Below are positions 4,911 to 47,740 of a stretch of 51,118 nt of DNA, piece by piece; position 1 is the first letter of the stretch, and every line of letters begins with the position of its first letter. Under the pieces are notes generated by a model. That model was not told where the DNA came from, made no database searches, and saw nothing but the letters and a program-made list of their open reading frames with translations. Origin of the DNA: Girardia tigrina (taxonomy: Eukaryota). The stretch lies in contig MQRK01239597.1 in assembly GCA_001938485.1 (NCBI GenBank), forward strand, positions 34,159 to 85,276, given 5' to 3'. A program made the translations under genes and the position numbers.

Positions 4911-5015
4911 AGTTAAATCTCCAGGTTTCACTTCAGGATTCATAATAACAACAAGTAGAATTTATTAATTATTTACAATCTTTTTAGAATACTTAAACAA
5001 ATAATAATCACAACT
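4911..5015 (-). repeat. 3' LTR of family A copy 1 (105 bp)
   Basis: Direct repeat of 9196-9300 with 5 mismatches by eye. Termini AGTT...AACT, adjacent to the PPT. Confidence 0.92.
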
Positions 5016-5025
5016 TTCCCCTCTT

Positions 5026-8000
5026 TTATAATTCGTTATTCACTTTCTTAATCCACTCAATTCTTCGACGAATTATGTTTCCATCTTTCAAATTCTGTAG
5101 TTCCAATTGGTGTGGCAATATATGTCTTAAAATTTGGTACGGTTCATCGAATGGGAAAGTGTCCTTTCTCAGTTTTGTAGGATCTTGTTTTACAAAAACT
5201 TTCTGACCATCCTCGAAATGTTGATTTGTTCTCTTCTCTCTCTCCCAATTTTCCATTCGTCTTGCCGCTTTCTCTAAATTTTCTCTGACCTTCATCTTGA
5301 TCACGTTGCTCTCTTCCATTTTAGCTATTCCTGCTGCCGCATGTAAGTTTATTTTTCTACCAAACACAACTTCGAAGGGCGAATATCCGGTCGTACTCTG
5401 AACTGAGGCATTTAGACAGAATTCTATCTTCTGAATAATTTGCCACCATGATTATTTGTCTGTGTCTCTTCTGCTTGTTACTATCATGTCTCTCACTGTT
5501 CGAATAGTTCTTTCTGCCAACCCGTTTAATTGATGTTCAAATGGGCTACTAAATCTTTGTTCGATTCCATATTTCCTGCAAAAATCTTTAAATTTTCCGC
5601 CAGTAAAACATTTTCCATTGTCTGTTAATATTGTTTTTGGCTTCCCATATCTATATATCCATTTTATCAACACGAATTGAACTATGGTGTCTTCGTTTTG
5701 AGTTTTAATCTCTGTCAAAGAGACCAATTTCGAAAACTGATCCACCATGACAAATAGATATGGGTACATGCTATTCTAGTCACCCACATATGCGATATCC
5801 ATCACGACTTGCTCTAAAAACTCGTCACTTCTTATTGGATTCAACTTGTCTTTTGTTTTTTCACTTGGAATTTTTCTGCGTATACATTCCTGACATTCTC
5901 CTATAACGATATGCACCTCTTTTGCTAAATCTGGTAGCATTAAAAAGATTTGGGATGAACTTCTTTGTCTTTTTGATACCTACATGACATAAATCTCTGT
6001 GTATTTTCCTGATGAAATCTCTTCTAATTTGCTTCGGAACCAATGGTAACACACAATTTCCTTCTTGCCTACCCCATAACCCATTCTGATAAACTAATTG
6101 GTCCTTTAGTTGTAATAACTCCTTGGTGATTTCATTCCTTTCACCCTCTGCCATCTCCTGTATTTGTTTCAACTGGTTCATCTCTGAGCACTTTTCTTGT
6201 TCGTCTTTTATCCATTGAATTGTAGACTGAATCACCACTGTATTGATCTGTTTCACCCTTGCTTTTGTTGATTTTGGTTCTTCGTGTTTTGTTTCACATT
6301 GTGCACAAACGTCGTTGTATAGCCGTGATAATCCATCTGCATTTCCATGTTCGTCACCTTTTCTATACTTCAAATCAAAGTCAAAATCCGCCATGTTTGC
6401 TAACCATGTCTGGAATTGAGGAGTTATTGGTTTGGAAGTACTCTTCATATACACTAGTGCTTTATGATCAGTTCTTGCTGTAAATCGCTTGCCATATAAA
6501 TATTGTTTGAAATGTAACATGAACTCTTGCAAAGTTAATAGTTCCTTTCTAGTCACACAGTACCCTTTTTCATGTGCAGTTAAAGTCCTCGATGCATGCA
6601 CGATTATTACTTCTTTCTCTTCTGATATCTAACTAAGAACTGCTCATATCGATCCGAATGATGCATCTGTGTCTAAGATGAAATTATTATTCGGGTTCAC
6701 AAATGCTAATATTGGTGCACCACATAGCTTTTGCTTCAATTCGTTAAAACTTCTGTCGCACTTGTCTGACCAAAAATATTTCTTTACATTTTCCGCTGCA
6801 TGCAATGTATAAAGGTGCTGCAAATTCTGCGTAATTCTTGATAAATCATCGATAGTGTAGTTACACAGATCTAAAAATGCTCGTAAATTTCGAGTACACT
6901 TTGGAATCGGAAAATTTTGAATTTCAGCCACTTCAATTTATTTGTTGAGATACCTTCTTTGTTAATTTTATGTTCCAGAAATACCAACTCCCCCACTCCG
7001 AATTAGCATTTCCCTGGATTGATTTTTAAACCTCCTTTCTTCAGTCTATTCGGTACTTCTTCTAATAATCTCATATGATCCTTCATTGATTTTGAGTAAA
7101 TTAAGACATCATCTAGATATATTACTACTCCAAAGAATAGTAAATCTTCAAATAATGAATTCATTATTCTCTGAAACGTTCCGGGTGCTGTTAAAAGTCC
7201 AAACGGTACACGGTTAAAACAATACTACTGTGTTCTTGTGCAAAACGCAGTCTTTTCTTGAGAACTTTCATCCAATGCTACTTGATGGTATGCTTTGCCT
7301 AGATCTATACTGAAAAAAATTCTGGAGCCACCCAGAGCATCCATTAACATTTGGCTGTCCGGTATTGGAAAGGAAACTTTCTTTGATACCTCATTCAATT
7401 TTATGAAATCTAAACAAATTCGAATACCTCCATCTTTCTTTGGCGTAATGATTAATTTCATTCACATTTACATTTCCGAATTATTCCTGCCTTTTCAAAT
7501 CCCTTCAGAAACCTTTGATTTGACTTTCTAAATGAATCGATTGCCTTCTTGGATTCAGAAAAATCGGTTTACCTTCTGTTTCAATTTTATGGACAACAAT
7601 ATCCTTAAATCCCAGATTATATTCATGTTTCATGAAAACATCATCATATCGCTTCACAAGGTCTTCCAGTCGTTTGTTTTGCTCTTGCAGTTTCATATCT
7701 TTCTCCACTCTCACAACTGACTTCTTGGTAGTTTTTTCAAGTTTGATTCCGAATTTATGCATGACATGAACACCACAAATGACTGCCGGTCGGATTGCTT
7801 TCACCACTAAAAAATCTACCGGATGACACTCTTCTTTCCATTTCAACTTCACTGTCATTTTTCCCAAACACTTATGGCCTTCTGAAAACGCTCCATTTAG
7901 TATAATTGGGCTCTTTTCTTATCTTGGTTGTCCGATTTCCAACCAAAGCCTCTCACTAATAACTGAAACACCCGCTCCACTATCCTACAACATTAATACA

Positions 8001-8134
8001 TTGTGAATGTTCAGCTTAACATTGCTCCACCATCTACCATCTGACTCATCTACTATCTATGCAATTCGATATTTTGGATATTTTATACCGACTCCACAGA
8101 CGAAATGCTCACCATGGAGTCTCTGGCGTTTAAA
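5026..8134 (-). pseudogene. pol: pol (PR-RT-RH-IN) pseudogene
   Basis: ORF fragments 5026-5367, 5452-5769, 5861-6601, 6644-6931, 7225-7461 and 7505-7867 are collinear pol domains separated by stops and frameshifts. Confidence 0.92.
8061..8134 (-). promoter_or_regulatory. -1 programmed ribosomal frameshift signal (U UUA AAC plus predicted pseudoknot)
   Basis: The heptamer is in the gag frame, followed by a 6-nt spacer and a 10-bp stem. The -1 frame is the protease frame. Conserved at 42978-43051. Confidence 0.82.
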
Positions 8135-9228
8135 TCATCTTCATATTCATCTTTATATGATTCCATATCCATGTTGTCTTCATTGAACACATCTTTGATA
8201 CATGCTACATTAACATTCTTAATATGATTACAGTTTCTGAACCCACGTCCACTTTTTTCACAGATTAAACAATGATTATTTAAAGGACAATCTTTTCCAC
8301 AGCAATAACAATCCCCTGTGGTTAAATGTTCCTCTTCTGGAGTTGGAAGTCTCTTTATTTTGCAATACAACTTCCTTGCTTCGTACAAAGCCGAATGCAC
8401 CGGCAATTATATTGCTGTTTATCTTCTGACATACTACAGGATCCTTTCTTAATTTTATTAAATCTTTCCGATGGTATTCTGCGTTCCGTTCTTAATATTG
8501 GTTGTCTATCGTTTGATTCATTCAATCTTGCTGTATTTCTTTTATGTTCAGGATTCTCATATCTTCTAACTTGATATTTGTCTTTCTTTTCCATTTCTAC
8601 ATACGATGTTTTGACGGATAAAACATCATTTCTTTCTTCTTTTGATATGTTGTCCTCATAAATCTTAGCTTCCGCTTTCATTTCACCCACCGATATGTTA
8701 GGTTTGAAAACAAATCGATCCTTCAGAACTTTAGATTTTATCCGCTTTTTCAAAAGTTCATTCAAAATTTCTTCATCGCTGTTTCCTAAAATTTTCAATT
8801 GTTTTCCGAACCCTTAATTTGAATGTTTCGAATCTTTCATTCTCACCTTGATAAATTTGGCTTAGTTTGTCCAATTCTTCGAACAGCGGTACTTTCTTTA
8901 TAAATGTTTTCTGGTACCAATTTTTGGATTCCACATCAGACATTGGTTTCTTATCTTCTTCTGTTGCATTCCCCCAAAGAATCTTTGCTTTGTCTATCAA
9001 CAAATAGTTACACCGTTCCGAGAATGTTAACCCAAAAAATTCTGAGAATTTGCATATGTCTCTATACCATATTTGACCTTCAGAATCCACTCCAGTGTAC
9101 TCCTTCATTTTCTTCTCGAGAGTTTCCTTAAAGATTGATGGAAGTTCTAGTTTTGGAAGCATCAAAACTTTTATTGGAACGCCAGTGTGGTCGCCATTTA
9201 AATCTTCAGGTTTCACTTCAGAATTCAT
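8083..9228 (-). pseudogene. gag: gag pseudogene (two frameshifts)
   Basis: ORFs 8773-9228, 8355-8798 and 8083-8406. Degenerate CCHC knuckles CYCCGKD.. / CLICEKSGRGFRNC. Homologous to 43000-44129. Confidence 0.85.
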
Positions 9229-9300
9229 AATAACAACAAATAGAATTTATTAATTATTTACAATCTTTTTAGAATGCTTAAACAAATAATAATCACAACT
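9196..9300 (-). repeat. 5' LTR of family A copy 1 (105 bp)
   Basis: Repeat of 4911-5015. Its last base is shared with the first T of the PBS. It contains AATAAA and the gag-frame ATG at 9228. Confidence 0.92.
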
Positions 9301-9773
9301 ATTTTAGTTAAATATATTGTTTTACAAAGAACTAATTCTATATTTTCATTATTTATCAAAACATATGTTTAGTGAATCTCGAATTAAATATTAGGATTTT
9401 TTTAAAAAAAATTTTTAATTCAATTATGAAATTGATATTAATTTTTAACTTGAAAAAATATGTATTTTATATGAAAAAAATCAATTTAATTTGAAAAAAT
9501 ATCGATTTAATAAGAAAATTATGTATTTAATACGAAAAAATATCAATTTAATATGAAATAAAACTTTTAAAATACAAACGTTTACAATTCAGCTTGCCAC
9601 CAAGGAAGAAGTTTAATTAACTATAAATATAAAAATAACATTTAAAGTCTATTTTGCATAATAAATTAAGATTTTTTTATATTTAATTTATATTTTTTTC
9701 ATATTAAATTGATAATTTTTAATATTAAATACTTTTCTTTCACATTATATTGATAAATTTTCATTTTAAAATG

Positions 9774-9816
<43 letters not shown>

Positions 9817-10367
9817 AACAATAAATATTGATTATAATCAAAAGAATAAAATTAAATATGCAGAGTTCGATAATTCTTACGGGAAACTGGAATTATATGT
9901 AATTGTTCGCCGATGTAGCTCGTCAACATATAATCAAAAATCATTGTCTCCTCATTTTCGATCACAGACGACGTAAATTCCATAAATATCTCAATCAATC
10001 AAATATCGCGGAATACATTGTTGTAAAAGGAACTACTATGAGGAAGAATGCTCTCCGTGCAATATTGAATAAAAGCTATGTGGTTTTTGTGACAAGAGAC
10101 AAAAACGACGTGTAATTTGTAAGGGTGGTGACACATCAGAGATGTTAGTTAACACAAAATGAAATAGAGGAAAACGACAGTTTCAACTACAATGGAGGTA
10201 ATATGGGATCAGAAAATATTGTTGAGATAATATTCTATTTTGTCCCTCCCTGTGACCCAAATTCCGCTTAATAACGCCAAAGTGTCGCAATCACGCAAGT
10301 AATGCGCCTTCTCTATTATCAGCCAAGTAGGGGAAAATTGGCATTCGACACACAAGACCCCCCCCCC

Positions 10368-10500
10368 GTTGCATGACAACGGTTACCATAGCAACGGTCG
10401 CGGTTACCACAGCAACGGTCGCGATCACCCTAGCAACGGTTCCGATTGGTCCCCGGTACCTTGGAAACATTTCTGATTGGTTCCCAGGTCCCTAGAAATG
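10368..10500. promoter_or_regulatory. Left array of RFX X-box-like palindromes plus two inverted CCAAT boxes
   Basis: GTTGCATGACAAC 10368, GTTACCATAGCAAC 10382, GTTACCACAGCAAC 10403, ATCACCCTAGCAAC 10424, GGTACCTTGGAAAC 10455. GATTGG at 10444 and 10475. Motif match only. Confidence 0.55.
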
Positions 10501-11149
10501 GTTTCGGTATTAGATTATTATGCAGATGTTATGTATTATATTAATGCATGTTTGAAGTACAACAGGAGTTTTTACAAGTCGTTTTAACATGTAAAATAAA
10601 AAGTTATGTATCTTGGTTACGGTAACCATAGTACTTGTGATTATACTTGTGTACATTAGGAGATTCATGTGGTATTGTTGATGGTAAACAACATACATAT
10701 ATCATATGGGTATATACGAAAAATAGATTTTTGAGCACTTTTTTGAGAATTTCAGAAATGTTCGAAAAAATTGATTTATCAGCACTTTTTTGAAAATATT
10801 GATGTGGAATCTGAATGTACGTATATGAATTACTATTCAAGTGCATCAGCACTTTTTTTGATATTCTGCTTTTTTGTACCTTTAAAATCGATGTGCATTT
10901 TGTGTAAATTTGTACATTATGTTAATTATAGGGAAAAGTAATCAATATATGAAATTTCTAATTGCACATTCAGATAGAAAATCAAAATGTGCATCAAACA
11001 CATGATATAGATTTTTAACACTAGTACTTTTAAAAAATTTTATGTATTGATTTTTGCACTTTTGCACATGTGCAACTTAAAAAGCACTGTGCTAGCATAT
11101 TAGAAATGTGCGGCATAATGTGCACTATCGATTAGCACTTTTTTCTTCG

Positions 11150-11292
11150 GTTGCTAAGAAAAGGGTTGCGGTTGCTATGGATGCGGTAATCGTTACCATG
11201 GTTACAACCATCTTGAATCACTGCATCCATTGCTAATGAAAAAAGCCCTTGGTTACCGTTGCTATGGGAACCGTAACTGTTACTATGGTAAC
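11150..11292. promoter_or_regulatory. Right array of RFX X-box-like palindromes
   Basis: GTTGCTAAGAAAAG 11150, GTTGCTATGGATGC 11171, GTTACCATGGTTAC 11192, GTTGCTATGGGAAC 11258, GTTACTATGGTAAC 11279. Motif match only. Confidence 0.55.
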
Positions 11293-12126
11293 AGTAACAG
11301 TGGGGTCTTGTGTGTCGAATTCCCATCTTTTTACCTACTCAGCCATTTTCTCACTTTTTACATAATCAAAATGGATGTAATAATTTAATTCGAATTTCAA
11401 TCTGTCTTTCATGGCAATGAAAACAGGTCCTTGTAGCCTTTTATTAATGAAAATAATCAATCTAGCTTACGAAATTCAATACAAGAATTTCAACTCCAGA
11501 CTTCTTTGCAATTCAAATATGTTTACCGGTGAAAATACGGCTGTTCAAAATAACGACTCTAAAGTTTCAAGTTTGACAAATTCAGAAATCTCAATCGACT
11601 CAAAATCAGTACTTAAGTATTCTGAACATGTCGATGTCCGCCGATTTGTGTCACATAGTGAAACTCAACAAACTGATTTCCAAAAGGTATTTCTGTGAAC
11701 CATCCAACCTTATCACTAATAATTTTTCGGGTTTCCTGGATTAGCTGAAACTGGAAATTCGTTGCATTAAGCACTCTCACCGACGAATTTCCATCTCACT
11801 AACAGCATCTAATCAACAAGATCATCCTAGAAGGTTTAGTAACAGATTAAACAAGAAAATCAGTAGTAGTGCAACAAATCTCATGTGACAATTTCAGCTC
11901 AGTCATTTGGACTTTGCCAGAAACGTACTTATCGTTGGTCTTGGAATTCCGAATCTCAATCTATTTTTTGTATCGTCAAATGATTTAACAATAGACTGGG
12001 TGCTTATTGTTCTATTCATTATTATTATTCATTATTATTAATTATTCATTATCTGTTTATATGTAGTTATTTTAAAAAGTTGATGGAAGAGGAAAATACA
12101 TCCAATTTCTTTTTCCATTACACAGA

Positions 12127-12161
<35 letters not shown>

Positions 12162-12207
12162 ATATAAAAAGTTCATGTAAAAGCAGCTTAAAATTTTATT
12201 TGATAGG

Positions 12208-12731
12208 TGTGAGGAATATTTTAAATTTGGTATGTTGAAATTGGTTTGTTGAATTTTGTATGTTGAGTTTAGTATTTGGAAATGTGTTTCTCTATCCAGA
12301 TGGAAAATTGATATTTTAGATGTTCACGATAAATAATTATTCGAGTATAATTTATATTTTAAAGTACACTATAAGATATTTAAAAACATTAAAAATATAA
12401 AATCTTCATATTAAAATTTAAATAAAATAAATAGTTTAACTAAGTTTTGAATTAATTAAATGTTCTTTCTTTACATAAAATAATTTTTANNNNNNNNNNN
12501 NNNNNNNNNNNNNNNNNNNNNNNNNNNNNNNNNNNNNNNNNNNNNNNNNNNNNNNNNNNNNNNNNNNNNNNNNNNNNNNNNNNNNNNNNNNNNNNNNNNN
12601 NNNNNNNNNNNNNNNNNATTATCAATTTAGAACGATGTCGAATGACGAGAGTTTCGCTGAGAGTTGTCCAAAAGACAATTCTGATTGTAATGAAAATAAA
12701 AGTTTGAAAAGCCATGTTGGTGTTCTTAATA
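12208..12731 (+). mobile_element. Solo LTR of a Gypsy family B relative (spans an assembly gap)
   Basis: Starts TGTGAGGAATATTTT and ends TGTTCTTAATA like the other family B LTRs. 5-bp TSD ATAGG at 12203-12207 and 12732-12736. The N gap could hide internal sequence. Confidence 0.85.
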
Positions 12732-15269
12732 ATAGGGTTTTACAATTCTTTAAAATTGTTTTGTTTAAACAATCATTCTTGATTCAAACAAAGTAAATTG
12801 GAAATTAGTTATGCTATCGTATTTAAATCAAACTAAATTTTAAATCAATGTTTCGAGACAATTGAAAATAATTTGACATCTTTTCAGACGAAGAATGAAA
12901 TGAAATCCTTTGTGAGACATTTGAAAAGAAACTTTCTATTTGTAACAAAAGAGAAAATAATCATTTTAAAAGGTTGATTTGCTCTATGTAAGGTATTTAT
13001 TTCATCAATGTATTTTGTGTTTGCTTTTGTGATACTGAAAAAAATATTTCAACATAGTTTAAATCAGACGAATTAAAAATTTCAAGATAAACTAATATTA
13101 TCAAAATTTAATTGTCTTAAAATGTTTATATGGAGTAAAAACAAAGTTTTTTTGTATAGTAAGTTAAAAAAATTTAAAATATTTTTTGTTTGTGATCTTG
13201 CACGCAATTGTTACAATAAATATACTACATCATGACTAATTAGGATAATTAATTGATATCAAGCTTAGTTAATCGTTTTGAATAAGGCCACTTCGACTAG
13301 AGTCTTTTCAGTACGTAAAATATGACTTGGTGACAAAGTAGCCAGGCGATTGTGGCGCTGCAGTGCCACAGGAGGGTGGTCTTTGGGTCACGGATGAATA
13401 ATAGAAAATCTGTTCTGGCCGTGCTTAGCATAGATATGCAAGTGGTACATAAACAACCATATGTTGACTGCGCTCAAGATTATAGTGTCATCCGACGGAT
13501 ATGTTTCAAATTAGAATCACAGAGACTCAGATAAAACTCTATCTCTTGAATGGTATCAACATTTTGACTAATGTACATTAAATCCAAATTAACACGCTTT
13601 AACCGTTCAGAAATTAAATAAATGATCAACCAAAAGTTTATATCACCAGCATTTCTAATAATTTATTTATGCGTAATAAATTTTATTTTTAAGATCTGAA
13701 TATTGTCTGTTTTATTTTACTGATTGTGAGGAATGTTAGAATTGTTTTTTGTTGTAAAATTTGCATGTTATATGTTGATTCGGATTGTCTCTCCTCCCCA
13801 AATGGCTGATTGGTATTTTCATGGATTCATAATTTTTGAAAATAATTTAATTTTAAAGTATAATTATTTAAAATTTTTTTCAAATGTATTTTTTAAATTT
13901 TTGAATGTAATATTTAATTTTTAAAGTAATTTAAAATGTTTTGTTTTTTTTGTCTTAAAAGTGTTTTTGTTTGTTTGTTTGTCGGTCATACTTTAAAATG
14001 TGAAATTGCGGACGAACCGGAGTGAATCCATTCAAGTACGTGGTGAATCTGGATAGCCCACGCCAATACAATTTTATGGGTACAGCGCCGTCGCTGAAAG
14101 ACGCTCGGAAGCTGATGAAATCGATCGAAAACCGTACAAGTATTTAAATGGTTAAATTAACACTGATTTCGAATAATGATGATTTCGATGATTCCTACAA
14201 GGAATTTCGTAAAACCTTTTATGAAAATACTAATAAAACACTAATGTATTTGATAAATTATGATTTTTATCATTTATTTACTAATTATATTTCTAAAAAT
14301 GAATTTAGCTGAAATTTGCAAAATTTCGTTGTTATCTGATTCACGGTTTGTCTATGATCATATAAATGCTGATAAAATGCGAAATAGTGGAGGAAAAGGG
14401 TGTGAATTTGCGTAAAGTTGAGAAAATTCTGCAGAGTCGAATATTCCTCACAATAATAACTTTTAAAAACTTTCTATTTAAATTTATTTATAAAATATTT
14501 TATAAAATTCATCAAAATAAATTAAATTTCATTGCATTAAAATTTTTGAAACGCAAATATATTATAAAAACTCTACTTAAAATTTTTATAAAATTACCAA
14601 AATATTTTTTACTTAAAATTTGGTAAATTTCATTATTTTAAGATATATCAATTGAAAATTTTATTTAAAAATTTATTTGTATTAAAATTGATTTGAATTG
14701 TAAATTCAAAAATCTTAACTTAAAAGATAGTTATCATTTCATTACTATTATTCAATTGTGTTTGAATGGACAATTATTGCAAATACAATTTTCAACTGCG
14801 GGGGCGAATCACCATTTTTGGTTCAACATACTTAAATCAATATTGCATTCACATACAATACAAAACATTTCTCATAAATGTAAAACAACACAATTAACAG
14901 ATTACTAGTTTATACTTGATTAAACTGATCGTATAAAATATTGTGTACTGCACCGATTGAAATATTTTATTCTTCTGCAATAAATCTTACTGATGTTGAT
15001 GTATTTCGACGTGCAGTATCACAAAAATTCTTTTAGTGTCTGTCATTTAATGCACTTCTCGCTCTTCTCAATCTCGGCTGATTAGCGACTAATGATATGG
15101 TTTCAAAACCCTTGGTTCTCTAATATTTCACTGTCAGTAAATTTAAAAACCAAATATTAAAACCTGAATCGGATTGTAATTGTGATTTAAAAACATTGTT
15201 CTGTTTTCTTAAAGAATGTTTATTTGATTGATTGTTTATGGAATTTTTATAATCTTTTGTAACATCATG

Positions 15270-17644: not shown

Positions 17645-18037
17645 GGATAAAAACAAGACGACACGTTTCGAGATAATAAAAATCCCATCATCATGTAACA
17701 AAATGTACCAAGCAGGTACACTATATGGAAACTTGCCGAAAATAAATAAAGTTTATCCAATAAATTATTGGATGAAAATAACTTTATTTCACTTTTCCTT
17801 AAAATTAAGAAAAATGCAATCTAGAAGAGAAAATACAAGGAATAGAAAAAATGAACGAAAAGAATACACAAACATACAGTACAGAGGTCGGATTGGATAT
17901 ACGAATAGAAGAGACCAAGTAGCAGATTTAGAAGACTTCGATGACGAGTGGGAAAGAATGTCGGAAAGATCGAATAAAAGAGGAGGTCTAACAAGAAGAG
18001 AAAATATTACAAACATGAAAAATTTCAGAGACGAACA

Positions 18038-18079
18038 GGGAAACGAGGAGGCACGGTCACAGGGAGAAGTGATCAGTGC
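18038..18079 (+). promoter_or_regulatory. -1 frameshift signal (G GGA AAC plus bulged hairpin)
   Basis: The heptamer is in the gag frame, followed by a 6-nt spacer and a 10-bp hairpin. The -1 frame is open into the protease ORF 18101-18394. Confidence 0.8.
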
Positions 18080-21000
18080 ACTTCACTAAGAAACGAATGT
18101 ATGTGTATGTTTGACTGTATGAATGATTGCTTGTATGATGACGTATGTTGTTTATTGGACACTGTTGAAAATATTCCTCAAGAATTGTGTATATTAGATG
18201 GTGAAAAAGAAATACACAATGAGAAATGTGACATTTTGATCACAGAAAAAGATGAAGAAAGAAGCACAGAGATAATGAAAATATCAAAGTTTAAAATAGA
18301 ATATGAAGAACTGAAAGGCAGACCTAGTATAGGATTTCAAATAAAGCATAAAAAATTAAGATGTCTACTGGATACGGGAGCACGAGTCAATTAAATTAGA
18401 CGTACTCAAAAATATGAAAAATACCAAAATAAAGGAGACAAAAAGACGTATACACTGTGCTTACGATTCAGAACTAGTAAATTACGGTATAGTACAACTA
18501 AAGATTAAGATTGAAAGAATACAGAAAACAGTGGATTTTTTTGTGGTTAGAGATTTGGAACCCGAAATGAATGCAGGAATAGATTTCCTAAATAAATTCA
18601 GCATAAAACTAAAGAAACATGATACAACAAAGGAGTGCTGATAATACGAGATACTTTAAATGGCGGAGACAGACTTAAAAGAATAAGGGAAATATACGCA
18701 GATAAGATAGATGAACCATTAATGAAATTAATAATATAATATAAAACGATATTTATGGCGGACAAATGGGATATAGGGAAGACCACACTAACTAAGCATA
18801 AAATTTAAACGCAAGGAGAATCAATATTGGTAAAACCGTACCGAGAGCCAAAACACTTTGAGGAAAAACTAGATGATATTACCAAGAGTTACGAGGAAAA
18901 TGATATCATTGAAAAATGCAGTTCGCCGTGGAATTTCACGCTAGTATGCGTATGGAAAAAAGACAAACATGATATCCGAGTATGTGTTGATTTTCTACAA
19001 TTAAATAAAGTTACAATCGGTCCAGCATTTCCAATACTAAATGTAGAAGAAATGCTAAATACATTAAATGGAGCGAAATACTTCAGCACGATCGACTTGT
19101 GGAGTGCATATCATCAAGTTGAATTGGAGAACGATTCAAAATTAAAAACTGCATTTTCGACAAAGAACGGCCAATATTGATTTAAAAGAATGCCATTCGG
19201 AATTGCAGCTGCCCCAGCGACATTTCAAGAACTAATGACAAGAGTGTTAGGAGAATTAAACTGGAAAGAAACAGTTGTATATCTGGACGATATTCTAATC
19301 TTCGCAAAAGACAAAGAAGAACATTTCAGACGAGTCGAACACATATTTCAAAAGATTAAAGAATTGGGCCTTCGGATAAACCCTGAAAAGTGTCAGTTCA
19401 TGGTAGAAAAGACAAAATTTTTAGGATATGTCGTGAGCAAAGATGGTATAGAGACAGATAAAACGAAAATTGAAGCAATCAACAAATTTCAAAATCATGC
19501 ATTAAACATTTAAGAAGTTGTCTTGGGTCTAATGAACTATTATAGAAAATTTTTGAATGATTATGCAAAATATTCAAAAATTCTGGAAGGACTATGTGGA
19601 AAAAATAAAGAAAAAAAATTGACATGAACAAAGGAATGTGACGAGGCATTTAAGACATTAAACGATAAAATGACAAAAACACCGATATTAGCATATGCAG
19701 ATTTCGAAAAGGAGTTTATACTGGATACAGACTCTAGTTTTGGTACAATCGGGGCAGTACTGGCACAGAACGATGCATACGGAAGGGAAAGAGTAATTGC
19801 ATATTGATCCTACAAGATGAACAAACACGAACTGGGATACTGTATTAAAAGGAAAGAATTATTGGCAATCTATTACTTTACCCAACACTTCAAACATTTC
19901 TTATACGGAAAGTAGTTTCTATTTAGGACGGACCATAAGGCCATCACATTCATGATGACAACGAAGAACCCAATAACTCCACAATTCCAAACTTGGATAA
20001 ACTTCCTTAGTAGACTAGACATGAGGATGGAATACCGCAAGGGCGAAAAACACACTAATGCAGACGCAATGTCGAGAAATACATGTGAACTATGTGTACA
20101 ATGTCAGACAATGCACGATGACGCTAAAAAAGGAAAAGTTAAAACTAGAATCCTAGCATTAACAGAAGATTCAGAAGAGTTCATTTGGCAGACGAATGAT
20201 GAAGAAATAGAACAGATTAAAGAAAATATTAAAATGGGAAAGACAAAAGAATGGCTACTGAAAAACAATATCGTGACTACAAGAGATAACAAATATTGGA
20301 TCCCTATGAAGAAGAGAACAGACTTTATAGAAGATATACATAAAATGTTATGCCATGCAGGAAGTAAGAAAGTATACAATTACATAAAAGATGATTTCGA
20401 GATGTATGAAATAAGATAACAGATAAAGAAAATCGTACAAAGTTGCGAAAACTGCCAGAAAAGGAAGACGCTGACGGAAAAAACGAAAGAAAAACACATT
20501 AAACAATCTGCCGACGAACCCTTTCAAAGAAATTACATGGACTTTTGCGGACCATTCAGAAGGACTAGGAATGGATACCAATACATTTTAGCAATAATCG
20601 ATCAATTTAGTAGGTACAATAGCTTGACCGCAGTAGCACACCAAGACGAGAAGACTACACGAAAGGCACTTTTAGAGAAATGGATTTGGAAATTCGGACT
20701 TCCAAAAGAGATACACATTGATAGAGGAAAAACTTTCGAATCAGCACTCTTTAAAGAAAAGACGAAAAAATGTAAGACGGAGATAGTCTATTCAAGCCCT
20801 TATCACCACAACACTAATGAGATCATAGAAAGACACTTTAGAATAATAATAGACGCCATAAATATACGATTAAAGGATGAAATGCATAGAGATTGGGTAG
20901 AAATGTTGGTAGAAATAGAATTCATGTTAAACGGTGCAATTCAAGCAACAACAGGAATATCTCCAGCCGAGATAATCTTCGGAAGAAAACTAAGACATTG

Positions 21001-21249
21001 GTGGAAAACTACAACAGAAGGAAAAAGTGGAGAAAAAGAAAATAAAAATATAACTGAAACAAAGCGAATATTTCAGGTCGGAGAAAGTCTTGATAAAGAA
21101 AATTAACCCATCAAAAGATGATGACCGTTATATGAGACCAGCTAAAATTATAAAGCAAAGACACGAAAGAAGTTATTAGATACAACTATAGGATGGCAGG
21201 ATCCTGATCAGAAATGTAGAATGGCTAAAGCCATTTAAACTGAGGGGGA

Positions 21250-21711
21250 TGTGAGGAATATTTTAATTTGTTTGAATGTGTATATGTATGGATGTTGTAT
21301 GCTGATTTAAGTATGTTGAATTTAGAATGGTGATTATCCTACCCAGATGGAAATTGGTATTTTTTTTATTAAATTTAAAGTGATTGACTATTCGAACACA
21401 ATTAAAATTAAGTTTAATATTTTTTAGTAAAATTTAAATTAAATGCATTTTTAATAATTTGATGACATTTTTATTATTTTAAGATTTATTGAAAAATAGT
21501 AAAAATTATTATTTTTTTAATTAATATTTTTAGAGGCTAAATATTTTAAAAAATAATTTAGAAAAATTGTTCGAATAATCATGATTAAAATCAGAAAAAA
21601 GAAAACGAATTAGAAGGATGACAAATGATGAAAGACTTTCTGAGAGTCGTAATGACTCTAAATGTGATTGTAATAAACATTCAAACGAGACTTGTTTAAA
21701 TGTTCTTAATA
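21250..21711 (+). repeat. 3' LTR of family B (462 bp, TG...TA)
   Basis: Follows the PPT and is closely similar over its full length to the solo LTR at 47279-47740. Confidence 0.93.
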
Positions 21712-26204: not shown

Positions 26205-26462
26205 AATTTAAATGGTCCAAGAGTACTTCTCCAATAACAATAAAATTCGCAATTTTTTTATATTTCTATTAAACAAAGAATCTAAAATAAAAAATATATA
26301 AATAAAATATAAAGAAGTATAATATTATTGGTTAAAATCTATTGAAATTATTTATTAATTTTTGATTGGATCAATGAAAAAAAAGTTTATTAAAGTTATA
26401 AACAACAAAACTTTTGATTTCAGTAAAACAAAATAATATTTCAAGAATATCAAACATACATT

Positions 26463-27599
26463 ATGAATTGCTCATTTTCAATTAGTTGTCAAAATAAAAC
26501 GATACGTTATTTTTCTATATCATTTTATACAGTGTTAATTATCATTGGAACCTTTGGAAACATTTTTGCAGTTTTAGTGATTCGATTCACTCGAACGATG
26601 GGCAACTCGAAGAATGTATTCACAGCTCTCGCCATCGCCGACTCTTTGACTTTGTGGATTAATCCTTTACGATATTGGATTAGTTTCCTATTTCAGTTTG
26701 AAATTCGTACTTCGAGTGATGGTTTGTGTAAGTTCCATACGTTTATGAGTTACTCTTCGAGAGACATTGCAACTTGGATTTTATGTCTGCTAACCTTTGA
26801 AAGGTTTATTGTCGCTTGTGCCCCGTACAAGTCAAAGATCATTTGGCAAGGTTATAAAATCATACTGGTGTGGATCGTGATAATTTCCGCATTATTAGCA
26901 AAAAACAGTCCCGTTATTTGGCAGTTGAAAATCATGACTTCCAAAACCAAACTCTGTTTTTGTGATACTTCTGATGTTGTTTTTAGACATTGGTTTTTCT
27001 ACTTGGATATAATTGTTTATAGTATTGTCCCATCGGGTCTTTTACTGATTTTCAATTTGGGTATTTTAAAAGCCCTTAGAAAAGCAAAAGCTTACCGATT
27101 AGAAGCTTGTCGAGAGAACTCCTGTTCAACCACAGTTCATAACTTAACCCTTAAAAGTCGTTATATAACCAAAAGCAGTTCAAGAAAACAAAATCATGGT
27201 AAAAAACCCATTAACCTTACCAATCGTTTACTAATTCCTGTGTCCATTTTTCACATGTTTACGTCAATGCCCTTATGTATATTCTCAATTTTAGAAGCCA
27301 ACTTGAAATGGAAAGATAATGCAGATTCAAAGATTGTTTATTTTGCATTTTGCACTGGTCCCTTTCTTGCAATGATTACTGCGTGTAATAATGGAATCAA
27401 CTTTCTTCTCTACTTCTTGAGTTCAATTACGTTCCGTAGAAATTCAAAGGTGGTTTTATTAAAAATCTTTCAATTCTATCGATCTCCAAACAATGAAGAA
27501 AGACTCTTTCTTGAGCAAAATTATACGATTACTCAACTAAGAACACGAATCCCAACAAATAAAGATGATAATCAAGATACTTTGAAGAAAGACATCTGA
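26463..27599 (+). CDS. Rhodopsin-family (class A) GPCR, peptide-receptor-like orphan, 378 aa, single coding exon
   Basis: Intact ORF with 7 hydrophobic segments: TM1 GTFGN, TM2 LAIADS, TM3 C...LTFERF, TM5 IVP..LL..N, TM6 TSMP, TM7 INFLLY, helix 8 FR. N-glycosylation sequons NCS and NKT. TTTCAG acceptor-like site ending at 26423. Confidence 0.93.
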   Translation: MNCSFSISCQNKTIRYFSISFYTVLIIIGTFGNIFAVLVIRFTRTMGNSKNVFTALAIADSLTLWINPLRYWISFLFQFEIRTSSDGLCKFHTFMSYSSRDIATWILCLLTFERFIVACAPYKSKIIWQGYKIILVWIVIISALLAKNSPVIWQLKIMTSKTKLCFCDTSDVVFRHWFFYLDIIVYSIVPSGLLLIFNLGILKALRKAKAYRLEACRENSCSTTVHNLTLKSRYITKSSSRKQNHGKKPINLTNRLLIPVSIFHMFTSMPLCIFSILEANLKWKDNADSKIVYFAFCTGPFLAMITACNNGINFLLYFLSSITFRRNSKVVLLKIFQFYRSPNNEERLFLEQNYTITQLRTRIPTNKDDNQDTLKKDI

Positions 27600-28009: not shown

Positions 28010-28790
28010 AGCACTTAAAATTCTAGTAGAGGTAATTTTATGATCTACAGATCACATATAAGTTGGATAATTGAATTTCCTAATGGGTTGAATGAAAAGC
28101 AGAAATAAAAGCATAAGGATGCTTGCTTGATGATGCTTTCTCGTTATAAATGTGAAAACATTTTGAATCAAATCATCACTTGTGAGGAAAAAAGGATCTG
28201 ATTTAATAATTGCAAACATTCAGCAAACTCAAAAACAGTCCAAAGCACAGTATTCATCAAAGGAAACATATAGTGATTGTTTGGTGGTCTTTTGTAAATG
28301 TTATCCATTATGAGGTCATGAAAACTGGTTCTGCAATCATAGCTGATGTCTACTGCAACCAATTGGAAGGTATAAAGCGGACACTTAAAGAAAAACAGTT
28401 GCGTTGTGTAAACAGGTCGTCTTTCATCTTGCTCTACAACAATGCAAAACTATATACTGCACTTAAAACCGTGACAAAAATACAGGAATTTGAGTTGAGT
28501 CAGTATCATCTTCTATACTCAACAGAGCCCTAGTTGATTACAATTTCTCCCTCAATTCGAAAAACACTTTTAGAGCAAAAAAAATCAATTCCGAAGATTC
28601 CGTAAAAAGTCTTCCAAGAATTTATAGATTATTGTCCACCAGGTTTTTATTCGAATAACTTCAACAAGCTACTGCTCAAATGGTAAAAGCGTGTCGATAA
28701 TTAGGGTGAATACTTTGTTGAATGTCATAAAACATTTTGTATAGGTAAATTATCAATAAACTTGACGACCTAATTTATGACGCCTAACAT
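28010..28790 (+). mobile_element. Decayed mariner relic
   Basis: Motifs QIITCEEKRI, IVWWSFVNVIHYE, ADVYCNQL and ILLYNNAKLYTA (HDNARPH equivalent). Confidence 0.8.
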
Positions 28791-32399: not shown

Positions 32400-33530
32400 T
32401 GTTAATGAAATTTCCAGAAGAAGTGGTATTCGGATTATTGTTACTGCAATTATAATTCTGATCAGTGTCATGTTAATTTATTTTGTTCGGTATTTGATTT
32501 TTGGATTCGGGAATTGTTGTAGTTACTATTGAAGATGGCCAATTGACGAGTAAGAATTGATTCGATAAATTGGGATTGCAAATGGCAATCCAAGATTCTG
32601 ATTCGTGAATTAAATTAATTGATTCCAACTCGGAGCTATCGTGATCAATAAATTCAGCAACGGTTTCGTAAGAATCAATGATGACATTTGAGAACACTTC
32701 GCATAATGCTTCTCCAGCAAATTTAAAATTCTTGTATTCTAAATCATTATTTATAGTTTTTCCATTTGAATCAAGATGAGTACCATAATAATCATGTTGA
32801 AGAATGAGTCCATTCGACGTTCTCCTAGATTGAATGCACTGCGATGGGGAGCATTAGTAGATATGAAGATCGCATCAAGACTACGTTCGATGAAATGATG
32901 TATAGCTGTTTCAATTACTTTTTGATAACGCGGATTTTCATCTGGACCACCATCAACTAAAATTATCATTACAGGTTTTAGTAAATTATTTTCACCGAAA
33001 AGAAATCGTTTTAACTGATCAACGTCATATAAACGTTTAAAATCTTTAGCATGTGAATATGCGGTCGAATGAGAATGCTTTCCTGATCTTACAGCGATGT
33101 TTGTAGGACCAGAATATTGAACTGCATTTGGATCACCAAAAACGTTGTTATCAATCGTTAATGCAGCATAAACTGAAGGTATCAACTTGTGTTGTTGAGC
33201 AATAACCTAATCATGATCAGGAAGTTTGACTCGATATTCCATGTTCATCAACAACGGCGCTTGACAATTAGCTGCAGGTAAACCAATCGGTACTTTTGCC
33301 TTATCGTCTTGACTAATGATCACTACTTCCTCAGGACCTAAAAAAGATGCGAGCTCATGGAGATTATTGTAAGTAGCTGTGCAAAAAACAGAATCCGGGT
33401 GACTTTTATGATTATCTCGCAAGGCCTTGATTAAGCGAACTGGAACTGTTTTAACATGTTTCTTATCATCAATTGAACGATAGTTTCTTGGTTGAAGATG
33501 ATGATACACCGTTGATCTACCAATTTCAAT
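32400..33530 (-). mobile_element. DDE transposase pseudogene, probably Zator superfamily
   Basis: SQDDKAKVPIG, LPDHD*VIA..HKLIPSVYA, YSGPT.IAVRSGKH, VDGGPDENPRY and NAPHRSAFN.GERRM. The family call is from recalled motifs, and no TIRs were found. Confidence 0.68.
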
Positions 33531-34027
33531 ATCCCTCCCATTATCCCATTACCATACTTTGTAATTCAAATTAATTTTAATTTACTTTTTAATTACAAGT
33601 TATTTTTGGTGAAAAGTCATTTTCTGTTAAAACTCTCACAAAAAAATAAAAAATGCATTTGTATTTCTTAAAATAAGAGGAATACATTCAGATCTATGTA
33701 TTTAAATGTTACATTAAAATCGTTAAGAATGAGATTCATTTGTTTTTTGCTAATTTTGATAAATCCGCTTTTAAAATGTCACAATGATTAATGTTTAGTG
33801 TCTAAATTTGAGTTTTATCTTTCGAAGAAATCGTTTTATTTTTAGAAATCTACCTCAAATTCAAGTGACAATCTTTTCCATAGCAATTAGCAACTTTAAA
33901 GTGTTTATATTAGAATATTTTTACAGTTAATATATAACCACAGGTTAAAGTTTTAAGAATATTTTAAATTGTGTATGAACGTGGTGTATTGATTTCAGTG
34001 TACTGAAATCGGAATTGTGATTCTGTG

Positions 34028-37980: not shown

Positions 37981-38400
37981 ATGTCAGAGAATAAATGTTC
38001 GAAAAAACGCAAAGAAAAATAAGATCATCGATCTTGGATTCCTCGATTTTTTATCGGTCGATTGCCAATGGAATTCGAACGGAAACCCGTCGATCCCGAG
38101 TATCGAAAATATCTGATCGCGCAATCGTGAATCGCCGCCGCAACAGGCGACTACTCGTACTTGGCAACGGCGCAATACTATCCTCGATATTCCAATGTCG
38201 ACCCGTCCAGAGAACGATCTCGCATGAAAGTACAAGCGAAAGATCTGCCGCTTTATTCGGAACCTCCCGATCCGAAATACGGATATGAATATATACCGAA
38301 TAAACGCATTTTAACAAAAACGACAAACGGAACGGTTTGTGAATCGTTAAAATCGAAATACAAATTATCGAACAATCGGAGTCTGTGGGCGACGCGATAA
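37981..38400 (+). pseudogene. Putative single-exon gene of unknown function (139 codons, two in-frame stops)
   Basis: One frame from ATG 37981 to TAA 38400, broken only by TAA 38020 and TGA 38128. It coincides with a sharply bounded CpG-rich island. Confidence 0.5.
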
Positions 38401-39498
38401 TTTACGTGATCGATATCGGTGACACCGGTCACCTCACACATATAAACAAATTTTCCGTTAATTTAATCATTTTGCCAAAATCCATTTGTTAAATTTTTCT
38501 TTCAATTTAATTTGTAAAAATAAATTATAATTATAAAATTTATTTTTAAATTATAAATAAATTTTTTTTATAAAATTTTATCATAAAACTATTAAATTTA
38601 AATTTACCAAAAGGCTTTTTTCAAAATTATTGCTTAAAAATATTATAAATTTTAAATTCGTTTATTATTTATTTTGAAATTCTTATTTCAACACTTTTAT
38701 TAAAATATATCAATTGTTATGACTGTAAACATTTTTTTTTGTTTTTATATAATCATTTAATCTTTGTTTGTTTTCATTTAAAAATCATTTGGAACTTTTT
38801 CTAATTTTGAAACGTTTTGTATTTATTTTATTCTTTAAAATTTTTAAATTTCAAAAAATTATTAAATTATTTTGGCGAAGTACAAATTTTTGATTCACCT
38901 TGGGGGTAAAAAATTAGCACAAATCCATCATATCTTGAATATTCAAAAAATCATTTCAAAATTAAATCTGTACATGAAAGTTGAAATAACTGTTAAGAAA
39001 ATGAATTTTAATGTAAATGGTAAATAAAAAAATATTGTTAAAAATTTAATTCGATTTGTTTTACAGAATTAATTAAATCAATTGATAAATGAAAAAAAGT
39101 TGTAAGATTTTAAATAACAATAAAAATAATAATATGTGATTGAATATCGTTCTGATTTGTTACCCTCATTGCGTGATAAAATTCAGTCGAAAAGACAGGT
39201 AAAAAGAGATTTCAATTCGTTAATGGAAAATTTGACTATTAAATTTCGTCAGCCATCAATAACAAATATTTTATAAAAGCATTTATAATTATCGTGACTA
39301 AAAAATAATTCAATGAATGAATTCAATAATATGTTTGCATGTTCTGAATATTCTCTTAACATTAATGATTCTGAAAAACTAAATAATTAAGTGAAAATTG
39401 ATTTTGTTATCTCCTGTGATACTGGGGCTCTCTATGTGAGTAAAAATTGTGAAGAGTCTGAAATTGAAATAAATAAAACTATCGATTCGATAAATTCT

Positions 39499-39648
39499 TA
39501 TTCGGGATTGTTATTTGTAGTTTTGAATCCCTACAAGAGATTGTCAATTTGCAGTGATAATATGATCGAGAGGCATAATGGTAAAAGGTGGTGTTCATGG
39601 CCGCCACGTGCTTGCATACTCCCAAACACGGCTCAAGCAGTCTATTGA
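39499..39648 (+). pseudogene. Myosin II motor-domain fragment, decayed
   Basis: YSGLLFVVLNPYKRLSICSDNMIERHNGKRWCSWPPR aligns with the conserved myosin II segment YSGLFCVVINPYKRLPIYS..IE.Y.GK.R..PPH. Confidence 0.7.
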
Positions 39649-41336
39649 CCAAGTCAGTTTGGATTGTTCTTGGCCGAGACCACCAACGTTTTTCCCATTT
39701 GAAGATGAGAAAAATATGATCGTAGGAGGAGCGAACAAAATGTCGATGACTGTTGATCGAATGGATCAGATTCTTAGTCATTCTCTCTCCCTTCGATTCA
39801 GTCTTCACCTGCCTATCACCAGAGCATTAAAGCAACGACCACGCTGCGCCCGCAATTGCATCAACAACAAATTTTAACAAAATACTCATAACAATATTCT
39901 CGTGTTTTACAACTTAACTTCAAAAAAATATTTACTTGGATCGACATTTCTAAAGACTTTTTATTTCTTATAAATAAAATTTTAATAATATTATTAGTAT
40001 TCTTTAAAAATGAGCTTCTGATAGCATCGATGTATCTGTAAATTATCTGCTTCATATAAATTATCCCCTTAGTGAATACATCTGTTATACGACGATGTCT
40101 GTGACATTTACATTAACTACTACGAATAAATTCTCGCAAACTTCAACTTTAATAAATAAATCACGAAATAAACTTAAAAAAACATTTTTCAAGTCTGAAA
40201 ATTAAATTAAATTCAGAAACGTTTTGAAAGTAAAAATTAATTTGACATTTTTATGGAATGTTTTATACAAAATCCATTTTTGTTTGGCAGTTCCGTTAAT
40301 AAAAGTTGAATTTAATTTATTTTTGTTTCTTTAGTAGTAATATAACATTTTCAAAAAAATAACATTGAATTAATCATCAAATAAATATACGGTATAAGCG
40401 ACAGCTTATTGAGCTGCGTTCAATTTCAGGTAGGAAATTATGTAAATGTTAAAGCAAAAAAAACAATTAAAGATACATATACTTATCTACCTCCGTTTTT
40501 TAACAACAAAATCTTCACAACCATCACAGGTGTCATCATCAATTACTGTTTCGGAATTTTGAATATATTTTTATTTCTATTCTGGTATTTCAATTTATGT
40601 CTCGAAATATTCTCCTTCTCTTCTTGTCCAAACGACAATCAATAATAAGAATTAATCATTATAAATTTAAAATTTATAATTATAAATGACAATATCGCTG
40701 AATTACTTGTTACTTTTTTATGTATAAAAATATATAATATAAGTTTTGTTTATTAAATATGTCTAATAAATTAACCAAGTACTCAAATATAATTTAAAAT
40801 ATTGAATATAAAAGATGATTTTTAATGTTACAGTTTTACTATATTTTTAAAAAAAACAATACTGATCTACCCGATTCACGAGTTGTCCCGAGAAGTGGAC
40901 GGTTGTAGCAGTAGTGCGCAGTGCAGGTTCGAGCAGGAGCTCAAAATCAGTGTGGCGGGCCCATATTTTTAATATCGATTGAGAGAAATACATTTGAAGA
41001 CAAAAGAGATAAGAATCGTTTTTGAAAATCGTGAGTGAAAACATCGAGAAATCTGTCACCAATACAGTCGATATTATCGCTCAGTTAATCGCGCATGTGA
41101 ATTTTGATCATCCTAACTAAATCATTAGAAAGTTTTTTACTGCAATTATAGTAAATATTTTCAAAAAATTCAAATGAATTTCTTTTAATATTTCCGTCAA
41201 AAGACGACATTAATTCGAGGACATGAGAGTCAGACATTTGAAATTAAGCTTTCGATATCGATATGATTTTTCGAAAACAAAATATATTTTCTTTTAAAAA
41301 AAATAAAATAACAATTCAAATGTTTATTTTCTTTTT

Positions 41337-45367: not shown

Positions 45368-45901
45368 CTAAAATTCAAGCTCCCAATCGTCAATTGTGGT
45401 CCTTAAGAGGACCGTATTTCCTTCGCAATTATTAGAAGCACTTGAGGAAACACTGATGAAATAATCTGGTTGAAACAATTTCCCAAGATTCGAATTCAGT
45501 ACATAATCGAGAGTGGTACTATTCAATTCAACCATGACGCTGATCGGCACACACTTTCCATGAATTCCAGAAGTAAAGTAAACGTAAATTCTTTGTAATT
45601 GCAAATCACTGTCGCTTTCGTAAACACCAGTGGTCGGTTTGACACCGTGTTCGTTGGTGATTATTTTCCAAACCTTCGTTTCGATACTGTTTCCACAACT
45701 TTGAAATATTCTCATTAATTCATACCATTGATCATGAATGTCTTCACAAATTTTAATAGGTGCTGAACTTTCGTTAGTTTCTTTGATATGCAATCTCCGA
45801 TCGGGAATTCTTGCATGATTATCTTCAAATGTCTTTATAAAATAATCTACATTAAAAATATAGTCAAATGGAAAAGTTATCTGTTCTTTTAAATTAGACA
45901 T
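45368..45901 (-). CDS. Unknown 177-aa ORF inserted antisense inside the hAT transposase (possibly a truncated gene copy)
   Basis: Long ATG-initiated ORF in very AT-rich DNA with globular-protein composition. The frame stays open for ~50 more codons after the TAG. No transposon motif recognised. Confidence 0.5.
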   Translation of the reverse strand: MSNLKEQITFPFDYIFNVDYFIKTFEDNHARIPDRRLHIKETNESSAPIKICEDIHDQWYELMRIFQSCGNSIETKVWKIITNEHGVKPTTGVYESDSDLQLQRIYVYFTSGIHGKCVPISVMVELNSTTLDYVLNSNLGKLFQPDYFISVSSSASNNCEGNTVLLRTTIDDWELEF

Positions 45902-46182: not shown

Positions 46183-47278
46183 NNNNNNNNNNNNNNNNNN
46201 NNNNNNNNNNNNNNNNNNNNNNNNNNNNNNNNTATATATATATATAATTGGAATTAAATTCCAATTCAAAAATTTATTTTTATTTCCATCTTGAACAGTA
46301 CTCTATTGAGAAAGATGCTGTCTTCTGCTTTTGCTGTCGAAAATTCTCATAGCCCGGCTCTGCTGGAGAAAGTGTTTTCTGAACAGGTGGATTCCGAAAT
46401 TGGAAATCAACTTTGGAAAAGGGAAAAAGTTTTCAAAAGCATGATTCTTCTGCTGACCTAATCAATGCCATGGAACGATGGAAGGAGAGGCAGCTGCGAT
46501 GTGAAAGAGGAGTGGAAGTTTGAACTTTGATTAATGAAACACAACTCAAGAACAACCTTTACTATGTCGACGCAATTGTTGATATTGTGAAGTTTCTTGT
46601 GATAAATGAATTAGCCTTTCGTGGTGACAGTTTCAGTAGGAATGACATTGAGGAGGATGAGAAACTTCCAAATGGCCTCTTTTTATGTCTTTTCGAATAC
46701 ACTATTAAGAAAAATCCTGATCTGGATCGAATCAATAAAACAATTCCAACATTTGCCACCTAGAATTTAAAATGAAATTATCGCGTTAATGGGATTAATG
46801 GTACATGAGTCAATTGTAAAGAAGTGTAATTCTGATGATGTCGAATATTTTACACTGAAGGTGTATGGTACCAAAGATCGAACGGGGTCTGAAAATGTGT
46901 CGATTACCATTAGATTTTTCTCAGCAGGACAACCTCAGGAGCACTTAATCTGCATTTCTCGAACAATTTTCACGAAACCAAAACTTTTTAAATATTGAAG
47001 AGCTAAAGACATTAGCGAATTTGTGTGGCGTGGATATAAACAAAACCCAACATGAGTATGAAACTGCAAAGATATTCCTATTGAAGACGACTAATACTGT
47101 GACATACGTTCATCAGTTAGTGCAAGAATTATACTTTTATCGAGAGGCATTTCCATCTGTGTATCGTCTTGCAGTTTCGGCACTCACACTCGGTTCTTCA
47201 ACTGCCACATGTGAGGCGAGTTTTAGTACTTTATCTCGTGTTCTAACTCCCTTTCGTACATCTATGACGCATTCTCGC

Positions 47279-47740
47279 TGTGAGGAATATTTTAATTTGT
47301 TTGAATGTGTAAATTTATGGATGCGGTATGTTGATTTAAGTATGTTGAATTTAGAATGGTGATTCTCCCACCCAGATGGAAATTGGTATTTTTTATTTAA
47401 ATTTAAAGTGATTGACTATTCGAACACAACTAAAATTAAGTTTAATATTTTTTAGTAAAATTTAAATTAAATGCATTTTTAATAATTTGATGACATTTTT
47501 ATTATTTGAAGATTTATTGAGAAAATGGTAAAAAATATTATTTTTTTAATTAATATTTTTAGAGGCTAAATATTTTAAAAAATCATTTAAAAAAATTTTT
47601 CGAATAATCATGATTAAAAATAGAAATAAGAAAACCAATTAGAAGGATGACAAACGATGAAAGACTTTCTGAGAGTCATAATGACTCTCAATGTGATTGT
47701 AATAAACATTCAAACGAGACTTGTTTAAATGTTCTTAATA
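47279..47740 (+). mobile_element. Solo LTR of Gypsy family B (462 bp) nested in the hAT transposase
   Basis: 5-bp TSD CTCGC at 47274-47278 and 47741-47745. Removing it restores ...SMTHSR|KANLVLLSF...RRLQLF*. Confidence 0.95.

Follow-up and report, generated by a model that had tools for sequence, protein, structure and literature searches.

What kind of mobile DNA lies at positions 10326-11339 of this stretch of Girardia tigrina DNA, and which enzymatic machinery moved it there? We considered this question within the window, by which we mean the whole 51,118-nucleotide stretch that was analysed, together with public sequencing runs, domain libraries and published descriptions of known elements. 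The 1,014-bp insertion is confirmed as a real mobile DNA element without genes, bounded by terminal inverted repeats (TIRs) and a target site duplication (TSD). Its components are listed below, with + for the strand as read and - for its complement.

10326-11339, no strand assigned: whole element, 1,014 bp, without a credible coding frame
10320-10325, +: left copy of the TSD, CAGCCA, with a T directly before it
11340-11345, +: right copy of the TSD, CAGCCA
10326-10331, +: left terminal hexamer AGTAGG, a perfect inversion of the right end, sharing 5 of 6 letters with (AGT)2
11334-11339, -: right terminal hexamer, reading CCTACT on the + strand
10343-10361, +: left copy of the 19-bp inverted core ATTCGACACACAAGACCCC, perfect, with a run of C after it
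11302-11320, -: right copy of the 19-bp inverted core, perfect
10380-10442, +: three tandem 21-bp units, the first and second each with a palindromic GTTRCYATRGYAAC-like box
10427-10488, +: two tandem 31-bp units, 71% alike, found in the left arm only
10499-11140, no strand assigned: A+T-rich interior of short modules, 28% G+C, with very high depth in all four mapped runs
near 10620-10640: an extra 21-bp-like unit in the interior
11150-11298, -: right arm with inverted 21-bp units, partly degenerate and best preserved at 11258-11298
starts at 10735, 10782, 10849, 11056 and 11135, +: copies of the motif GCACTTTT

A first-pass annotation of this DNA had described an exact 6-bp TSD, termini of the form AGTAG...CTACT and a perfect 19-bp inverted core, and each of these is present as listed, the termini being seen as full hexamers. 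The core occurs at only two sites in the window when up to 3 mismatches are allowed, and none of 100 shuffles gave two matches. The long inverted arms described there proved imperfect, as claimed, but not long: the two arms align over just ~95 nt at 73%, and deeper in, the shared part is the 21-bp motif only. The number of these units differs between family members, as in a contig joint that leads from 10438 back to 10380. At their first 11 positions the two ends mismatch at 2; a Repbase rule relies on the same TSD length and on alignment of terminal positions 1-11 to a classified member, with one mismatch allowed, to recognise a non-autonomous element (PMC4455052). When the single strand is folded, the ends are paired in both the minimum-energy and the centroid structures, a length at which the folds carry no shuffle control.

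The exact direct repeat is 7 nt long, TCAGCCA, as the left CAGCCA is also preceded by T, and two longer TSD readings are also possible. A 7-bp TSD is exact but leaves the element with asymmetric ends, and an 8-bp TSD (TCAGCCAA/TCAGCCAT) carries one mismatch and would give the ends GTAGG..CCTAC. The 6-bp reading is the sole one tested that has neither mismatch nor asymmetric ends, on the evidence of one copy of the element and hence one TSD. By chance alone, two hexamers at a fixed site would match with a probability of ~4e-4. When the whole window is searched, 54 pairs combine a 6-bp direct repeat with a 6-bp terminal inversion, and it is solely the subterminal core that puts the pair of the element at the top of this list (24 of 30 letters, with 20 for the runner-up). 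Other such candidates around 38300-40500 were set aside as merely A+T-rich chance repeats, and no second copy of the element was found in the window.

The interior had been described earlier as lacking a credible open reading frame and as carrying a recurring motif, and both descriptions hold. Eight stop-to-stop frames of at least 55 aa overlap the element, the longest of 105 aa, and none has a Pfam match; a search of 9000-13000 against Rfam gave three matches (E 0.65-0.84), all far under thresholds. The element holds five copies of GCACTTTT, each of them on the + strand; four more lie in the remaining 50 kb of the window. Four copies lie in 10499-11140, against a shuffled mean of 0.03 and none of 2,000 shuffles, while any 8-mer reached four copies in 5 of 1,000 shuffles of that interval. 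Sites within 2 substitutions of the palindrome GTTRCYATRGYAAC, which we take to be the consensus of the RFX X-box, number five in the element and none elsewhere in the window.

The insertion is a non-autonomous element resembling a miniature inverted-repeat transposable element (MITE), and its family is a very abundant one among flatworm repeats. We favour a Polinton/Maverick as its mobiliser: in this reading, to which we give roughly even confidence, the element was moved in trans by a Polinton/Maverick integrase. An exact 6-bp repeat lies directly outside the perfectly inverted AGTAGG/CCTACT. Polinton TSDs are 6 bp (PMC10045372), and vertebrate Mavericks carry the end motifs (AGT)2//(ACT)2, (AG)3//(CT)3 or (AC)3A and TIRs of 46-1,447 bp with a mean of 402 bp (PMC8097293). 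The Polinton-type TSD length and AG ends noted in the first-pass annotation fit this pattern. The end motif is not the canonical (AGT)2: at either end AGTAGG shares 5 of 6 letters with it and is an imperfect trinucleotide repeat; flatworm motifs may differ. The TIRs, ~95 nt at 73%, fall at the short end of the vertebrate range and below its mean. Polintons are present in planarians (Schmidtea), where they are controlled as piRNA targets (PMC8532177), and DNA annotated as Maverick is expanded in Dugesia genomes (10.64898/2025.12.11.693146).

If the Polinton reading is correct, a DDE integrase supplied in trans would have made a cut staggered by 6 bp in the target DNA, the repair of which would yield the CAGCCA duplication. 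The terminal hexamer and the 19-bp core would be the cis signals for the integrase of the partner, and perhaps also for its protein-primed polymerase. A single strand could close into a panhandle; the original Polinton model reportedly involves such an intermediate, which the paired ends of the single strand would suit. More tentatively, the family may have spread by Polinton-style excision, copying and re-integration, and its interior modules may have been reshuffled through slippage and recombination.

Comparison with described elements places the insertion near Polintons without making it a member of the autonomous class. It shares with autonomous Polintons/Mavericks the AG..CT ends, an AGT-type first triplet, the presence of TIRs and, on the 6-bp reading, the TSD length (PMC8097293, PMC6431247). 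It differs in being 1 kb long, whereas vertebrate copies measure 12.7-24.6 kb (PMC8097293), in lacking genes, in ending in AGTAGG rather than (AGT)2 or (AG)3, and in having short imperfect TIRs. An autonomous Polinton/Maverick was accordingly rejected as a candidate on length (1,014 bp against ~13-40 kb; PMC8097293, PMC6431247) and on the lack of any pPolB or integrase Pfam match in the element. The combination of AG..CT ends with a 6-bp TSD fits Polintons better than it fits IS3EU, GingerRoot, Crypton or a solo LTR. IS3EU and GingerRoot have the TSD length in common with the element on the 6-bp reading, but their ends are TA..TA or TG..CA (PMC10045372); both were rejected on this ground, and an inner TA..TA reading has mismatches at 4 of 6 flank positions. 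Cryptons, described as having short terminal direct repeats and no TIRs (PMC3212892), were rejected since the element has TIRs.

We regard the novelty as modest, because non-autonomous families named after Polintons already exist. In the name Polinton-1N1_DR, the "N" stands for non-autonomous. This Repbase family name has appeared in print (PMC9341505), and its type would be of the same kind as the element (Polinton ends, no machinery, moved in trans). The available parts of the literature searched describe no non-autonomous Polinton/Maverick from a flatworm; Repbase and Dfam stand outside that literature and may list the family. None of five short motifs taken from the element or from its family occurred in the literature searched, and nothing relevant to a described Dugesia repeat family appeared among the matches listed.

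An autonomous partner was sought in the window and in public collections. For 118 of the 197 window frames of at least 55 aa, the Pfam matches include neither pPolB nor a packaging ATPase, an adenoviral-type protease or a capsid domain, and the integrase-core matches among them lie in retroelement remnants. The window is A+T-rich animal DNA with many decayed Gypsy-type, mariner and hAT remnants, and it matches the base composition and repeat load described for planarians (10.64898/2025.12.11.693146), which would suit a free-living planarian as host. The recognisable fragments are as follows.

4913-9300 (-), 17978-21711 (+), 41337-44196 (-) and 47279-51118: Gypsy-type retroelements in decay, with pieces of reverse transcriptase, RNase H and integrase
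1837-2837 and 28210-28533: mariner transposase, in broken copies
46949-47362, +: divergent hAT dimerisation domain fragment
45368-45901, -: divergent tubulin fragment, under the Pfam cut-off
39391-39645, +: divergent myosin head fragment, under the Pfam cut-off

Direct repeats of 103 bp, 91 bp and 463 bp by the Gypsy-type retroelements may be LTR remnants, and the tubulin and myosin head fragments may be pseudogenes or captured pieces. Three adjacent frames at 32473-33548 (-) have no Pfam match and resemble a decayed DNA transposase; a DDKAKVPIG stretch within them is, we presume, reminiscent of Zator-type transposases. Beyond the window, searches of viral contigs with the end and interior motifs returned 17 stretches, none continuing the core or aligning to the element. 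Metagenome contigs returned nine stretches with 21- to 29-nt matches in DNA of 44-72% G+C, which were judged to be chance, and prokaryote genomes gave no match to the element motifs. These blanks in the viral, metagenome and prokaryote collections say little, because flatworm genomes are not expected there.

Public sequencing runs were more informative about the family. Of the sampled words, fractions of 0.64 and 0.54 are present in two DNA runs of one organism and small shares in another 18 rows, while three small runs labelled as organism A and guessed to be RNA contain none. Three of the 18 (X3, X4 and X7) were mapped, and the other 15 were given no weight as evidence of habitat. Four of the 24 listed runs were mapped on 9860-11980 at 80% likeness: X1 (a DNA run), X3 (organism B), X4 (organism C, guessed to be RNA) and X7 (an aquatic metagenome). 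In X1, 205,243 of 13,058,167 contigs (1.57%) map to this 2.1-kb stretch; the shares are 0.25% in X3, 0.29% in X4 and 0.10% in X7. Median depth in X1 is 1.4e7 over 13 interior bins, against 2e2-1.7e4 in the flank bins, and X3, X4 and X7 show the same concentration inside the element; contig depth is no copy number, and a coverage hole proves nothing. A few thousand copies or more are estimated by hand, on the premises that bases are over-counted up to 31-fold and that a single locus accounts for the junction contig depth of 180. The interior of the element is thus part of a very abundant repeat family, and this family is modular. Its members show internal skips of 444-466 nt and back-joints of 59 to 425 nt (10438 to 10380, 10657 to 10524, 10889 to 10739 and 11103 to 10678), and some loose contig ends consist of further modules.

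The ends of the element behave differently from its interior. The left junction is present in reads, because a 315-nt X1 contig with 3 differences crosses it, spanning 10041-10355 and ending 30 nt inside the element; X1 is possibly related to the source of the window, so that this support is not fully independent. With a word length of 31, as we assumed, a graph branch at 10326 would make the contig stop at just this point. Coverage at the two ends lies 29- to 2,031-fold below that of the interior in all four runs, with interior-to-end ratios of 29 and 714 in X1, 1,639 and 154 in X3, 61 and 1,084 in X4, and 1,010 and 2,031 in X7. No loose end falls at 10326 or 11339 among the 24 shown of 1,763 (with the X1 differences partly counted). 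Either short terminal contigs were lost by the method, or the ends mark a small subfamily and the interior has been amplified elsewhere. The first-pass annotation had called the locus a non-coding, non-autonomous TIR insertion, which is supported, and a multi-copy family is indeed seen in the mapped runs. It did not foresee the excess of interior over ends in every mapped run, which a simple model of many 1-kb copies with shared ends does not predict.

The main rival to Polinton mobilisation is that the element is a MITE of a cut-and-paste transposase, either of a hAT-type subgroup (6- to 8-bp TSD) or of an unclassified family with a 6-bp TSD, and we hold this to be somewhat unlikely. Subterminal arrays of short units are a hallmark of cut-and-paste elements, and the short imperfect TIRs with inverted subterminal 21-bp arrays resemble that pattern; the arrays, spaced two helical turns apart, would then serve the transposase as binding sites, and the likeness of the AG..CT ends to those of Polintons would be no more than a resemblance. 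The norm for hAT elements is an 8-bp TSD, the 8-bp reading here has the single mismatch noted above and the 7-bp reading none, and a hAT dimerisation remnant lies inside the window. Ends of the form TAGG..CCTA would suit hAT or IS3EU, but at 10328-11337 no duplication adjoins them (mismatches at 4 of 6 and 7 of 8 positions), and the 6-bp reading does without either mismatch or asymmetry. Some hAT families have a 7-bp TSD (PMC4455052). Like the MITEs of cut-and-paste TIR transposons, the element is ~1 kb long and non-coding, with TIRs, a TSD of fixed length, very high copy number and internal deletion variants; this abundance and the 444-466 nt deletions are typical of MITEs (PMC8969392). It differs from them in that its ends fit no superfamily tested and seem rarer than its interior, the opposite of the usual MITE pattern. 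Abundance also speaks for a cut-and-paste origin: the median for vertebrate Mavericks is 8 copies per genome (PMC8097293), the available text on Anolis reports no non-autonomous Maverick copies (PMC3014272), and the interior of the element far exceeds in abundance the tens to hundreds of copies given for vertebrate Mavericks.

A composite origin, which would be compatible with either mobiliser, appears improbable. Here a satellite-like modular interior would owe its amplification chiefly to tandem arrays or to other elements that contain it, and only a small subfamily would have been packaged between AGTAGG ends and moved. The interior-to-end ratios of 29 to 2,031 across the four mapped runs agree with this, as do the back-joints and the loose ends of further modules, and by hand estimate the unbranched junction contig allows only ~10-15 other copies with an identical first 30 nt. 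Against it, the 21-bp arrays extend the inverted symmetry of the cores, the inner borders, near 10369 and 11301, show no duplication on inspection by eye, and the low end depth may be technical, with short terminal contigs that run into unique flanks possibly left unplaced. A nested inner insertion was rejected on the same lack of an inner duplication. Satellites are defined by a tandem array without clear termini or TSD (PMC8969392); the element has both termini and TSD, and its family shows back-joints and repeated modules.

That the insertion is a solo LTR with non-canonical AG..CT ends, left by a Gypsy- or BEL-type retrotransposon, is very improbable. Some insect gypsy LTRs start with AGT, and several Gypsy-type remnants lie in the window. 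The usual end repeats of LTRs are far shorter than inverted arms of ~95 nt, which the element has together with a perfect 19-bp core, and the element is unlike the direct repeats that flank the retroelements of the window. Solo LTRs keep a 4- to 6-bp TSD and often form abundant "unknown" families, but the ends here are neither TG..CA nor among the variants listed in the available text, and a canonical solo LTR was rejected on that criterion (PMC8969392). It is scarcely credible that the ends and the duplication arose by coincidence, or as an artefact of assembly around satellite DNA: the 54 chance-like 6+6 pairs and the many N gaps in the assembly lend it something, but the 19-bp core is confined to both ends of the element, the fixed-site hexamer match is improbable by chance, and a public contig crosses the left junction, though from a run that may be related to the source of the window.

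The consequences depend on the mobiliser. If the element was moved by a Polinton, it defines minimal cis signals for Polinton integration and copying (the hexamer, the 19-bp core and the 21-bp arrays), and Polintons, usually low-copy in vertebrates, would be able to drive amplification on the scale of MITEs; the reading of the "Maverick" fractions of planarian genomes could change. We suggest only speculatively, and think it rather unlikely, that a gene-less 1-kb Polinton parasite is among the commonest repeats of a freshwater flatworm group, and that such miniatures and satellite-like modules, rather than 15- to 40-kb elements, account for part of the planarian "Maverick expansion"; with several X-box-like palindromic boxes per copy, the family may also have scattered thousands of host-factor sites. 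If the element was moved by a cut-and-paste transposase, it would count as an ordinary MITE, if a very abundant one, and belongs in repeat libraries.

Several further observations concern the surroundings of the element. The flanks at 9860-10325 and 11346-11980 are older, moderately repeated sequence of 34-37% G+C with no Pfam match, and related contigs in X1, X3 and X4 are roughly 80-88% alike. One X4 contig has a loose end before 11356 of which 21 of the first 24 shown letters match, by eye, the window at 9884-9907. This contig seems to lack the element and ~420 bp of the left flank, and its gap seems to be a splice or deletion variant of the flanking repeat, with an inexact join. About 540 bp to the left of the element, at 9444-9787, lies an A+T-rich fold-back with units of 21-bp period and inverted arms of 95 nt at 76%, possibly a second, unrelated MITE-like remnant. 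At 26427-27599 (+), the window carries an uninterrupted, intact-looking frame of 390 aa for a rhodopsin-type receptor, which belongs to a small clade with eight relatives at E up to 1e-30; the three of these eight examined that bear species names come from a cestode (43%), a monogenean (43%) and, much more weakly, a gastropod (29%). The closest named relatives of the receptor are thus flatworm proteins, from which the host was judged to be a flatworm. At the insertion site itself, the CAG of the TSD follows a pyrimidine tract, and the right end of the element adds another tract and CAG; the element may thus be placed on a splice acceptor.
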